Shown here piece after piece: positions 48,016 to 49,702 of a stretch of 64,000 nt of DNA; position 1 is the stretch's first letter, and every line of letters starts with the position of its first letter. Where the stretch lies: sequence record NZ_CP119397.1; one strand, 5' to 3'. The DNA is from a plasmid. The notes beneath the pieces were generated by a model that had not been told where the DNA came from, made no database searches, and saw only the letters and a program-made list of their open reading frames with translations. Position numbers and translations under genes: made by a program.

Positions 48016-48666
48016 TTACTCCGCGCCAAATTCCTTGAGGTAAACTTCAATTTTTCTTACTTTGCTCTGCGCGTCAGGCGCGCCTCTTAAACACGACAAA
48101 ATATGACCAATGGTGGTTATCGAATAGATATCAATATTAAGCCGCGCTGCCGCACGTTGCAGCGCAGAGCCGGGGCCCTCTGCCCCGCGCTCCTGCCGGT
48201 CAAGCGCCACGAGATAAGCCGCCGGGAGGCCGCCTTCAGCCCGTATCAGCTTAATGCTGTCGTCAATGGTCATCCCTGACGTAATGACATCATCAACAGT
48301 GACTATTCTTTTATGTTGCAAAGCGGCGCCAACCATTAACCCGCCGTCACCATAGCTCTTTATCTCTTTACGGTTGAAGGCGTAATTTACCTCGGTGTGG
48401 AAATCACGCTGAAGAGAAAGCGCAATGGCGACGCCCAGGGGTATCCCTTTATAAGCCGGCCCAAAAATTACCTCAGGGGATAAGTTATTCTCCGAAATAA
48501 AACGCGCATAAAACCAGGCGGCTTTATTAAGAAGACGGGCACTGGAGAGTTTGCCGAAATTAAAGAAATAGGGACTGTTCCTGCCGGACTTTAACGTAAA
48601 ATCCCCGAATTCAACCACATCACTGCTAATCAAGAAATCCGCAAATTCATGCTGTGCGTCTGACAT
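48016..48666 (-). CDS. Orotate phosphoribosyltransferase paralog (PyrE-like)
   Basis: Collinear ~50% identity to E. coli PyrE incl. FGDFTLKSGRNSPYFFNFG and PRPP motif VTVDDVITSGMT; 20-bp overlap with upstream pyrD-like gene. Confidence 0.85.
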   Translation of the reverse strand: MSDAQHEFADFLISSDVVEFGDFTLKSGRNSPYFFNFGKLSSARLLNKAAWFYARFISENNLSPEVIFGPAYKGIPLGVAIALSLQRDFHTEVNYAFNRKEIKSYGDGGLMVGAALQHKRIVTVDDVITSGMTIDDSIKLIRAEGGLPAAYLVALDRQERGAEGPGSALQRAAARLNIDIYSITTIGHILSCLRGAPDAQSKVRKIEVYLKEFGAE

Positions 48667-49702
48667 AATATGATCCTCTGGCTTGGTCAATTGAGCTGAA
48701 CCCGTCCCGCTGCATGCACGCTTTCATTTGCTTAAGCATGGCCGGTATCAGGGAGGGGCCATCATAAATAAAGGCCGTATATATCTGGCAAAGTGTGGCC
48801 CCCATACAAATTCGCAGGTAGGCCTCTTCGCCGCTGTTAATGCCCCCGGATGCGATAATAGGTTTACTGTTCCCGATGGCCGTATATGCCCTTTGCAGCA
48901 TGTCGCGGGATTTTTTCTGCAACGGTGTCCCTGACAAGCCCCCTGTTTGCAGATGTGAAGGCAGATTATTAAGGCTATCCCTGCTGGTGGTGGTATTGCT
49001 GATGATAATCCCATCAACCACAGATCGCGCTAAATAGGCAAGCAGCTCGGATTCTTCACCCGGTGCCATATCCGGGGAGAGCTTAATCAGGAGAGGGCAC
49101 CCCGGTTTCCTTTGCTGCCTTAAGGTATCCAGTCTCCTGAGCAAGGGATCTATCGAGGCCGCCTGCTGAAGATCTCTTAATCCCGGTGTGTTGGGCGAAG
49201 AGAGGTTAATGGTCAGGTAATCCGCAAATGAGATAAGCGTTTCCGCTCCCTTGATAAAATCATCCATATCGTTGGCAGAGGTCTTATTCTTGCCCAGATT
49301 GACTCCCAGCGTGAGGTCACCTTTGTGGTTGATGAGACGTTGCTGCACATACGCCATACCCTTTGAGTTAAACCCATAGCGATTGATAATGGCTCTGTCA
49401 TCTTTCAGGCGGAACAACCGGGGACGGGGGTTCCCAGGCTGAGGCTGAGGGGTGACTGAGCCTACCTCAACAAAACTGAACCCAAGGCGGGCAAGCGCTT
49501 GATACGCCTCGGCATCTTTGTCAAAGCCTGCGGCCATCCCCACGGGGTGGGTAAAGTGTTTTCCCCATACGTTCAGGGAAAGCCCATCAGGAATGCGGAG
49601 AGTTTGAGCCGGCGCAAACCGGCGCAGGCCGAGGATGGCAAGGTGATGCGCGGTTTCGGGATCAAGCCGCAACAGCGCTTTACGGCTGAGTTCAACGATC
49701 AT
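48647..49702 (-). CDS. Class 2 dihydroorotate dehydrogenase paralog (PyrD-like)
   Basis: Collinear similarity to E. coli PyrD incl. catalytic-Ser block ISSPNTPGLR and QTGGLSG; ATGA overlap with upstream gene. Confidence 0.85.
   Translation of the reverse strand: MIVELSRKALLRLDPETAHHLAILGLRRFAPAQTLRIPDGLSLNVWGKHFTHPVGMAAGFDKDAEAYQALARLGFSFVEVGSVTPQPQPGNPRPRLFRLKDDRAIINRYGFNSKGMAYVQQRLINHKGDLTLGVNLGKNKTSANDMDDFIKGAETLISFADYLTINLSSPNTPGLRDLQQAASIDPLLRRLDTLRQQRKPGCPLLIKLSPDMAPGEESELLAYLARSVVDGIIISNTTTSRDSLNNLPSHLQTGGLSGTPLQKKSRDMLQRAYTAIGNSKPIIASGGINSGEEAYLRICMGATLCQIYTAFIYDGPSLIPAMLKQMKACMQRDGFSSIDQARGSYYVRRTA

Follow-up and report, generated by a model that had tools for sequence, protein, structure and literature searches.

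Overlapping pyrD and pyrE genes in a plasmid-borne accessory operon that probably makes an undescribed small molecule

Sequence analysis of a 64,000-nt stretch of the plasmid record NZ_CP119397.1 (referred to as the window; all feature coordinates are window positions) identified a pyrD gene and a pyrE gene, encoding a dihydroorotate dehydrogenase (DHODH) and an orotate phosphoribosyltransferase (OPRTase), within an operon of nine intact genes that runs on the minus strand from 54444 to 46644. Both proteins look like catalytically competent, canonical enzymes, and both genes are very likely extra copies and not the core pyrimidine loci. The operon probably makes an undescribed small molecule, and pyrD and pyrE most likely feed or protect the pyrimidine pool in that process. 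Variants of the operon, collectively termed the cluster here, recur across phyla on mobile elements.

Proteins identical to those of the window were found in Chimaeribacter arupi. The exact PyrD and PyrE proteins, as well as the exact pyridoxal 5'-phosphate (PLP)-dependent enzyme of the operon, are named '(plasmid) [Chimaeribacter arupi]' at NCBI, and the longest contig carrying the exact PyrE is 250,769 bp in length.

PyrD and PyrE: catalytic residues, overlap and ancestry

PyrD matched the Pfam family DHO_dh (9.8e-74), scored above the cut-offs of two NCBIfam equivalog models for quinone-dependent DHODH (NF003645, 411.5 bits against 366; TIGR01036, 373.5 bits against 200) and was 40% identical to PyrD of E. 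coli MG1655 (b0945). Its catalytic block reads NLSSPNTPGLR, in which S169 aligns with Ser175 of the E. coli enzyme, indicating a serine base and not the cysteine of class 1 enzymes. The initial annotation had recognized this serine block, but spelled it ISSPNTPGLR, which is the E. coli form and one residue off, as the window has L. Residues K62, N112, N166, N171, K207 and N236 correspond to K66, N111, N172, N177, K217 and N246 of E. coli PyrD, which serve in the binding of orotate and flavin mononucleotide (FMN), and were invariant in an alignment of five sequences (four enterobacterial cluster lineages and E. coli). By alignment, residues 1-40 correspond to the N-terminal (membrane/quinone) domain of the E. 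coli enzyme, and a C-terminal tail is present that is missing from E. coli PyrD.

PyrE scored 155 bits with the TIGR00336 pyrE model, whose cut-off is 106.8, and was 42% identical to PyrE of E. coli MG1655 (b3642). The motif for binding of phosphoribosyl pyrophosphate (PRPP) is VTVDDVITSGMT, exactly as initially annotated. The conserved residues K26, Y72, K73, R99, K100, K103, D125, D126 and R157 were assigned by reference to K26, K73, R99, K100, K103, D124/D125 and R156 of the E. coli enzyme, and the PRPP motif, the lysines of the flexible loop and the orotate contacts were invariant among six sequences (five cluster copies and E. coli). Every catalytic residue that was checked against E. coli is kept in both proteins, in agreement with the earlier proposal that both are likely active. 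Cluster copies of PyrD or PyrE from Sphingobium and Bacillus were also above the canonical equivalog cut-offs.

The start codon of pyrE is the ATG at 48666, which lies within the last codons of pyrD and is preceded by an AGAGGA Shine-Dalgarno sequence with a 7-nt spacer. Gene callers started pyrE at this ATG on identical contigs. A TTG codon at 48690, given as the start by a mechanical list of open reading frames (ORFs), was ruled out by the Shine-Dalgarno-preceded ATG and by the choice of the gene callers. With the pyrD stop codon located at 48647-48649, the 20-bp overlap reported for the two genes is exact. The orthologous genes also overlap, by 20 bp in both Pectobacterium and Xenorhabdus, by 11 bp in Photorhabdus and by 8 bp in Dickeya, and therefore translational coupling of pyrD and pyrE is conserved.

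No further pyrD or pyrE gene was found in the window. A blastn search of the region against 5,426 E. coli genomes gave no match; an enterobacterial pyrD of the housekeeping lineage is expected to match E. coli at the sensitivity of blastn. Beyond the cluster orthologues, the nearest relatives of PyrD were at most 52% identical, and plant and animal mitochondrial DHODHs were 45-47% identical to it, as compared with 40% for E. coli. The two genes were considered extra copies because they are plasmid-borne, because their products are 40-42% identical to the E. coli proteins, and because PyrD is closer to mitochondrial than to enterobacterial DHODHs. The C-terminal tail of PyrD and the negative blastn result point the same way. 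In other hosts of the cluster, the Sphingobium plasmid gene is annotated pyrD_2, and the DHODH encoded by the Bacillus plasmid scored 451 bits with the class-2 model and 97-99 bits with the class-1-type models PRK07259 and pyrD_sub1_fam; the housekeeping DHODH of Bacillus is of class 1B.

In a rough neighbor-joining tree, the enterobacterial cluster PyrDs formed one clade away from E. coli, and the Sphingobium pyrD_2 product grouped with a sphingomonad PyrD (62% identity) taken as housekeeping. These two placements suggest that DHODH was recruited into the cluster at least twice, apparently from different lineages, which fits selection for an ordinary, generic DHODH activity.

The operon, its neighboring enzymes and related loci

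The nine genes are arranged in the order flavin reductase-like protein, HpaB-like oxygenase, NUDIX hydrolase, M24 metallohydrolase, SbnA-like PLP enzyme, PyrD, PyrE, SerK/SbnI-like kinase and LOG (Table 1). The first eight (54444-47583) overlap or are at most 12 bp apart, with a gap of 12 bp between the reductase and HpaB genes, overlaps of 32 bp between HpaB and NUDIX and of 11 bp between NUDIX and M24, a gap of 10 bp between M24 and PLP, an overlap of 4 bp between PLP and pyrD, and a gap of 4 bp between pyrE and the ParB-fold gene that encodes the putative kinase. LOG, which ends the cluster, follows after a 375-bp gap. The regulator gene upstream of the operon is kept beside the cluster in all C. 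arupi contigs. The designation of this region as an accessory operon was borne out by the tight spacing, by polymorphism within the species and by the mobile elements that carry the cluster in other hosts.

The 375-bp gap between the kinase and LOG genes (47208-47582) is where most relatives have a gene for a DMT_YdcZ exporter. No exporter remnant was detected in this interval, and a terminator-like hairpin is located inside it at 47446-47430. In Pectobacterium, the DMT_YdcZ gene lies between pyrE and LOG, and the kinase gene is absent there.

Table 1. Genes of the operon and its upstream regulator, with window coordinates
Feature	Length (aa)	Coordinates	Strand	Basis
LysR-family regulator		55089..55952	-	Pfam HTH_1 + LysR_substrate; 644 bp upstream of operon, same orientation
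Flavin reductase-like protein	236	53734..54444	-	NCBIfam NF005963, E 1.2e-15, residues 18-234
HpaB-like two-component flavin monooxygenase	483	52270..53721	-	Pfam HpaB_N + HpaB
MutT/NudG-like NUDIX hydrolase	125	51924..52301	-	Pfam NUDIX, 1.4e-14
M24 metallohydrolase (Creatinase_N + Peptidase_M24)	401	50729..51934	-	Pfam
SbnA-family fold-type II PLP beta-replacement enzyme	339	49699..50718	-	TIGR03945; best PDB match SbnA 5d84
pyrD, class-2 quinone-dependent DHODH	351	48647..49702	-	Pfam, NCBIfam, alignment
pyrE, OPRTase (from ATG at 48666)	216	48016..48666	-	TIGR00336, alignment, start site
ParB/Srx-fold protein, probable L-serine kinase (SerK/SbnI-like)	142	47583..48011	-	Weak SerK match, context, fold
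LOG-family nucleoside 5'-monophosphate phosphoribohydrolase	187	46644..47207	-	TIGR00730, Pfam Lysine_decarbox

The reductase-like protein scored far below the cut-off of NF005963 (NAD(P)H-flavin reductase) and had no Pfam match. Orthologues are present in Pectobacterium (45% identity) and Photorhabdus (39%), and the Pseudomonas version of the cluster carries a Flavin_Reduct protein instead. It is presumed to be the partner of the HpaB-like oxygenase, whose best match in the PDB was HpaB of T. thermophilus (2yyg, E 5.8e-87). Of the Thermus HpaB residues, R100 and H142, which hold the phenolic hydroxyl, are kept and Y104 is replaced by F, and the residues that bind the carboxylate of 4-hydroxyphenylacetate, S197/T198, are replaced by M/P. 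Such a predicted pocket is compatible with a dihydroxypyrimidine or an enolic heteroaromatic ring. The PDB matches of the NUDIX hydrolase were MutT proteins and, over nearly the full length, the CTP pyrophosphohydrolase NudG (2rrk). The 32-bp overlap of its gene with that for HpaB recurs on the Bacillus plasmid.

The M24 protein was assigned as a metallohydrolase and not as a creatinase-like metal-free enzyme because all five metal ligands (D259, D270, H334, E363 and E377) were invariant in eight orthologues. Its gene always adjoins the PLP gene among the loci examined. The PLP enzyme scored 286.9 bits with TIGR03945, under the SbnA equivalog cut-off of 349.95, and keeps the equivalents of SbnA R132, which recognizes O-phosphoserine (OPS), Y152 and S185, namely R129, Y149 and the S of VSTGG. 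Identity of the PLP enzyme to its cluster orthologues is 55-84%, as compared with 36-37% for the SbnAs of staphyloferrin-B-like clusters. No SbnB-type partner, either an ornithine-cyclodeaminase or an octopine-dehydrogenase-type gene, was found in any version of the cluster examined. Both the absence of SbnB and the low identity to real SbnAs disfavor a true SbnA function, in which L-Glu is the nucleophile and L-2,3-diaminopropionic acid (L-Dap) the product.

The 142-aa ParB-fold protein matched the NCBIfam SerK model at E 7e-4, far below the cut-off, and has a DGNHR motif; the Photorhabdus orthologue matched the same model at 1.4e-7. At the equivalent place, the Bacillus cluster has a full-length SbnI homologue (NF033589, 7.9e-51; PDB SbnI 6nr6, 6.9e-37). 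An AlphaFold (AF2) model of the short protein, made with database homologues (pLDDT 69.8), had as its top eight PDB fold matches SerK, 1vk1 (the Pyrococcus furiosus structural match of SerK) and SbnI, with weak E values of 0.02-0.4. Comparison of the short ParB-like proteins with the Bacillus SbnI-like protein by hhalign was uninformative (probability 1.5%). These weak matches, the gene context and the fold suggest that the protein is probably a free-serine kinase that makes OPS. Short ParB-fold proteins of 146-183 aa that are 44-48% identical to it were also noted in two Gram-negative staphyloferrin-B-like clusters (loci L136, 10001-10552, and L137, 10001-10441), which contain a PALP enzyme (SbnA), an Octopine_DH-type dehydrogenase, IucA/IucC, an Orn/Arg decarboxylase and a transporter of the major facilitator superfamily (MFS). 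The short ParB-fold proteins look like a compact counterpart of SbnI.

The LOG protein scored 184.9 bits with TIGR00730 (cut-off 96.35), had 5zbj as its best PDB match (1.8e-55) and contains the motifs GGGHVGLMG (GGGxxGLMG) and PGGAGTLEE (PGGxGTxEE); it is conserved beside the cluster in nine lineages. The occurrence of NUDIX, ParB-like, phosphoribosyltransferase (PRTase) and SLOG domains near an integrase and a low-GC ORF could also be read as an anti-phage defense system. This reading was rejected, as PADLOC reported nothing relevant in the window, its only results being a generic NUDIX match (PDC-S07) and a non-significant PRTase match.

The remainder of the window consists of accessory genes, including amylase and trehalose-type genes, MFS transporters, a methyl-accepting chemotaxis protein and an integrase, and contains no tRNA gene. 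The tyrosine integrase gene (62328-63425, +) is located about 8 kb from the cluster, and other C. arupi contigs also have this integrase next to the region. An ORF of 644 aa (42151-44085, -), located between aldo-keto reductase genes and a LysR/flavodoxin-like pair, has a GC content of 39%, as compared with the window mean of 55%, and no Pfam or PADLOC match. Two adjacent genes of the alpha-amylase family (56154-60475, -) encode proteins of 845 and 595 aa and have a GC content of 0.62-0.64. A CBM48 isoamylase-like gene (1815-3929, -) and a GH15/trehalase-like gene (4042-6117, +) are found on the same stretch, and together these genes look like a glycogen-to-trehalose set.

Related loci were found in both Gram-negative and Gram-positive bacteria (Table 2), and gene orders differ among hosts that share the PyrD/PyrE/NUDIX/LOG and HpaB-M24-PLP set. 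One locus with HpaB, M24, PLP and PyrD matches (L078) was left out because it was fragmented. The cluster core is M24 and PLP, usually with HpaB. The facultative part of the cluster is a module of NUDIX, LOG, PyrE, PyrD, the kinase and the DMT exporter; PyrD, PyrE, NUDIX and LOG are therefore an add-on, as the Pseudomonas versions and the M24+PLP pairs are without pyrimidine genes. In Photorhabdus, Pectobacterium, Rosenbergiella, Xenorhabdus and Bacillus, the DMT_YdcZ exporter gene is part of the nucleotide module.

Table 2. Loci related to the cluster
Host	Location	Content
Xenorhabdus griffiniae	ICE-like region	PyrD 79% identical; PLP gene split
Human-gut metagenome	Contig (L054)	72-75% identical; reductase and kinase genes decayed (pseudogenes)
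Pectobacterium	Chromosomal contig	PyrD 65%
Photorhabdus	Chromosomal contig	PyrD 58%
Dickeya zeae	Chromosome	PyrD 46% (alignment; 45% by tblastn); HpaB split
Rosenbergiella	Tn7-like element	PyrE, no PyrD; plus AsnB-like + MFS
Sphingobium	Plasmid	NUDIX, LOG, HpaB, M24, PLP, 'pyrD_2'; PyrE none seen
Bacillus paranthracis	Plasmid	PyrE, PLP, M24, NUDIX, HpaB, SbnI, LOG, DMT exporter, class-2 DHODH
Pseudomonas chlororaphis	Chromosome	HpaB, M24, PLP, flavin reductase, AsnB-like, MFS; without pyrimidine genes, NUDIX, LOG, kinase
Various metagenomes		Minimal M24+PLP pairs
ICE, integrative and conjugative element.

A deletion form of the cluster is present in the C. arupi reference strain 2016-Iso3 and other strains. 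This form retains the LysR gene and intact pyrD, pyrE, kinase and LOG genes, whereas the PLP gene is reduced to a 3' stub of 110 aa and the reductase, HpaB, NUDIX and M24 genes have been lost (loci L001, L002 and L006, approximately 9670-13060, equivalent to window 46644-50030). Copies within the species are about 99-100% identical and copies between genera are saturated; a search of PLSDB gave no DNA match to the cluster. No published description of the cluster was found in the full-text literature covered, which was open-access PMC and bioRxiv only.

Several further features were observed among the related loci. An AsnB-like amidotransferase and an MFS transporter follow the cluster in both Rosenbergiella (L045, 13530-16679) and Pseudomonas chlororaphis (L047, 11657-14777) and are 88% and 73% identical between the two, and HpaB, M24 and PLP are 48-60% identical between Pseudomonas and window-type clusters; the AsnB-like and MFS genes look like a separately exchanged sub-module. 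Minimal M24+PLP pairs without HpaB or nucleotide genes were found at L065 (8874-12256) and also at L056, L057, L063, L064 and L127. At L065, possibly of cyanobacterial origin, an S-adenosylmethionine methyltransferase gene is directly upstream of the pair, and DUF4079 and GAF histidine-kinase genes flank it. The pair of M24 and PLP genes appears to be the ancestral unit. The Bacillus paranthracis plasmid carries, about 9 kb from the cluster (L053, 21268-25065), a second operon with pyrB (aspartate carbamoyltransferase), TauD/TfdA, a split thiamine pyrophosphate enzyme, DUF1611 and MFS genes. On the Sphingobium plasmid, a KAS III-like gene and a fragment with AMP-binding_C and peptidyl carrier protein domains are inserted between LOG and HpaB (L052, 5379-8096), which hints at an acylated variant of the product.

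Candidate roles of the pyrimidine genes

Extra primary-metabolism genes within clusters are used as a clue to the product or the target. The clue is rich in this case, with five helper enzymes (DHODH, OPRTase, NUDIX, LOG and serine kinase) around a core of three (HpaB, M24 and the SbnA-like enzyme). The context of pyrD and pyrE, namely the NUDIX and LOG proteins, the SerK/SbnI-like kinase and the SbnA-like enzyme, points to precursor supply or to self-protection by boosting of the pyrimidine pool, and these two explanations are not mutually exclusive.

The explanation favored here, put forward tentatively and at somewhat less than an even chance, is that canonical PyrD and PyrE supply a pyrimidine base to the PLP enzyme for the synthesis of a willardiine-like amino acid. 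An ordinary, active DHODH and OPRTase would have been captured into a mobile operon, forming a pyrimidine branch that escapes the pyr regulation of the host. PyrD would convert dihydroorotate to orotate and PyrE would convert orotate to orotidine 5'-monophosphate (OMP), from which the PyrF of the host would form uridine 5'-monophosphate (UMP). The NUDIX hydrolase would reduce pyrimidine nucleoside triphosphates to monophosphates, and LOG would split the monophosphates into free base and ribose-5-phosphate. In parallel, the SerK/SbnI-like kinase would provide OPS, and the SbnA-like enzyme would couple it with the base to give a beta-(pyrimidinyl)alanine, either willardiine-like or orotyl-alanine. 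The HpaB-like oxygenase and its reductase may then hydroxylate the ring, and the M24 metallohydrolase may process the product further. The identities of the enzymes, their conserved catalytic residues, the structure of the operon and the recurrence of the gene set across phyla on mobile elements are established; we infer the order of these steps, the specificities of LOG and NUDIX, the nucleophile of the PLP enzyme and the product.

Precursor supply is consistent with the equivalog scores and with the conservation of all checked substrate contacts in four cluster lineages for PyrD and five for PyrE. PyrD, PyrE, NUDIX and LOG can be placed on a single linear route leading to a free base. The apparently independent recruitment of DHODH and the HpaB pocket, which suits an enolic ring, also speak for it. 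Furthermore, the nucleotide genes travel together with HpaB-M24-PLP in Chimaeribacter, Xenorhabdus, Pectobacterium, Photorhabdus, Dickeya, Rosenbergiella (no PyrD), Sphingobium (PyrE unseen) and Bacillus. A probable supply enzyme for the other co-substrate of the PLP enzyme, the SerK/SbnI-like kinase, is carried in the cluster, with a true SbnI homologue in Bacillus and short forms in staphyloferrin-B-like clusters, and the PLP enzyme keeps the OPS-binding Arg of SbnA. There is also a plant parallel, in that the uracilylalanine synthase of willardiine biosynthesis uses uracil derived from the orotate pathway (PMC9611319).

Several observations weigh against precursor supply. The pyrF gene, which would be needed for supply of uracil at equal flux, was found in no cluster version with inspectable flanks. 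The Pseudomonas-type clusters and the M24+PLP pairs have no pyrimidine genes, and therefore the PLP enzyme may well use a nucleophile other than a pyrimidine. NUDIX is no less constant than LOG, PyrE and PyrD, which nucleotide sanitation explains better. The base specificity of LOG cannot be read from the sequence, its best matches being cytokinin-type LOGs, no product has been described, and the M24 step is left unexplained.

Self-protection, the main rival, is possible but rather unlikely. It assumes that HpaB, M24 and the PLP enzyme make a base-like antimetabolite, from which salvage enzymes of the host can form toxic nucleotides; NUDIX would take the analogue triphosphates to monophosphates, LOG would release the base from these, the DMT protein would export the base, and PyrD and PyrE would raise orotate and OMP to out-compete the analogue, for example at OMP decarboxylase. 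A precedent is minimycin, in which a phosphatase domain, a uracil phosphoribosyltransferase (UPRTase) that raises the UMP pool, and a transporter provide self-resistance (PMC6908994). The NUDIX protein is of the MutT/NudG-like, sanitizing type and is translationally coupled to HpaB in enterics as well as in Bacillus, and the exporter gene is found within the nucleotide module of five genera. The missing pyrF fits substrate competition at PyrF, and the module is dispensable in Pseudomonas-type clusters. However, an extra or resistant pyrF would protect more simply and is never present, and the serine kinase, a probable supply enzyme, belongs to this sub-module too. In addition, the C. arupi strains that have lost HpaB, NUDIX, M24 and PLP keep pyrD, pyrE, serK and LOG, which argues against a tight dependence, although the deletion may be recent, and no toxic product is known.

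Such pool-boosting is a form of self-resistance, but it differs from the resistant target proposed in the initial annotation, which is an improbable explanation. In that proposal, the product inhibits DHODH and/or OPRTase, and the copies in the cluster are insensitive to it. Duplicated resistant targets are a known theme in gene clusters, and the copies described here travel with the cluster on mobile elements and are divergent from the enterobacterial housekeeping type (40-42% identity to E. coli, with non-cluster relatives at or below 52%). On the other hand, the checked residues of the orotate, FMN and PRPP sites are identical to those of E. coli (the quinone tunnel is outside this comparison), so no substitution was seen at the orotate site, and nothing in the cluster suggests a lipophilic inhibitor of the quinone site. 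DHODH was apparently recruited at least twice, and the Sphingobium copy, with 62% identity to the presumed housekeeping sphingomonad PyrD, looks like a local recruit. The genes are also patchy, as PyrD is absent from Rosenbergiella, PyrE was not seen in Sphingobium, and both are absent from Pseudomonas. Moreover, a resistant target would leave NUDIX, LOG and the serine kinase unexplained.

The initial annotation had also suggested that such paralogs process a substrate analogue. In an extended form of this idea, the PyrD- and PyrE-like enzymes are neofunctionalized and act on an analogue built by the PLP enzyme, M24 and HpaB, and the resulting unusual nucleotide is trimmed by NUDIX and LOG in a cryptic ribosylation. 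The position of PyrD and PyrE directly after the PLP enzyme in the operon and the absence of pyrF, which would be natural, agree with this explanation, and the pairing of a PRTase with LOG resembles the logic of nucleoside antibiotics, in which a base is attached to ribose-phosphate and then freed from it. Nevertheless, it has a low probability, because the checked orotate, FMN and PRPP contacts are canonical and all tested cluster copies, including those of Sphingobium and Bacillus, score above the housekeeping equivalog cut-offs. The apparent origin of DHODH from at least two lineages and the retention of the same core in clusters without PyrD or PyrE also argue against it. The view of the two genes as dedicated paralogs thus holds in that they are accessory, horizontally mobile and competent-looking, but not with regard to an analogue substrate or the named target bypass.

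It is very improbable that pyrD and pyrE are mere passengers or the sole copies, on a chromid, with no functional tie to their neighbors: the truncated C. arupi strains do keep both genes intact, but the association is found again, in varying gene orders, in both Proteobacteria and Bacillota, the operon shows translational coupling of the genes, and an extra-copy status is indicated by the 40% identity to E. coli PyrD, the lack of an E. coli blastn match, the pyrD_2 label in Sphingobium and the class 2 type of the Bacillus copy.

Should precursor supply be correct, the product would represent a new class of bacterial nucleobase amino acid; should self-protection be correct, the operon would be a second, more elaborate case of the minimycin type of self-resistance by substrate competition. 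We know of no willardiine-type pathway in bacteria. It is conceivable, though doubtful, that the cluster encodes a pathway for a nucleobase amino acid that would be the first in bacteria. The compound would be a hydroxylated uracilyl- or orotyl-alanine, made by an OPS-dependent SbnA-like enzyme with its own PyrD-PyrE-NUDIX-LOG branch, and the operon would move among Gram-negative and Gram-positive hosts by means of plasmids, ICE-like regions and Tn7-like elements. Such a product may be related to willardiine or mimosine and may act as a glutamate-receptor agonist, an antimetabolite or a chelator. The widespread M24+PLP pair may more generally be a way to make amino acids of the Dap or albizziine type without SbnB. 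The hosts of the core include plant pathogens (Pectobacterium and Dickeya), symbionts of the insect-pathogen type (Xenorhabdus and Photorhabdus), nectar bacteria, a clinical species of Yersiniaceae and members of the Bacillus cereus group. With about 8 kb, the widely distributed operon is compact and lends itself to experiments by heterologous expression.

Comparison with known systems

The L-Dap module of staphyloferrin B in Staphylococcus aureus (SbnA with SbnI, and SbnB) resembles the cluster in the pairing of a PLP enzyme, here predicted to depend on OPS, with a ParB-fold protein that is here a probable free-serine kinase, in the retained equivalents of SbnA R132, Y152 and S185, and in the true SbnI homologue of the Bacillus cluster. 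In contrast to that module, the cluster has no SbnB-like dehydrogenase and no IucA/IucC synthetases, and its PLP enzyme is below the SbnA cut-off and is always paired with M24, here together with HpaB, NUDIX, LOG, PyrD and PyrE.

Plant uracilylalanine synthases use O-acetylserine, whereas in the cluster OPS is the predicted donor and a pyrimidine the presumed nucleophile. The plant willardiine/isowillardiine synthase (EC 2.5.1.53) is otherwise like the proposed enzyme, being a PLP enzyme of the cysteine synthase family that links an activated serine with a pyrimidine base of orotate-pathway origin (PMC9611319).

The safeguard of the minimycin (min) cluster, formed by the N-terminal domain of MinC, MinD and MinT, shares with the present proposal a pyrimidine enzyme that raises the nucleotide pool, the dismantling of toxic nucleotides and an exporter (PMC6908994). 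The two differ in that the min system uses a salvage UPRTase and a phosphatase, whereas in the cluster the DHODH and OPRTase of the de novo pathway are combined with NUDIX and LOG, and toxicity of its product is hypothetical.

The pyrD (b0945) and pyrE (b3642) genes of E. coli encode enzymes of the same classes with the same catalytic residues, and the cluster enzymes score above the equivalog cut-offs for these functions. Unlike the unlinked E. coli genes, those of the cluster are adjacent and overlapping, and their products share 40% and 42% identity with the E. coli proteins, PyrD having its additional tail. They are plasmid-borne and part of an operon headed by a LysR gene instead of being subject to pyr attenuation controls.

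In conclusion, the duplication of primary-metabolism genes into a biosynthetic cluster is of a known kind. What is new, with no match found in the open-access literature, is an SbnA-like enzyme locked to an M24 metallohydrolase, usually with HpaB, and accompanied by a detachable module in which enzymes of de novo pyrimidine synthesis are joined by NUDIX, LOG and a probable serine kinase.

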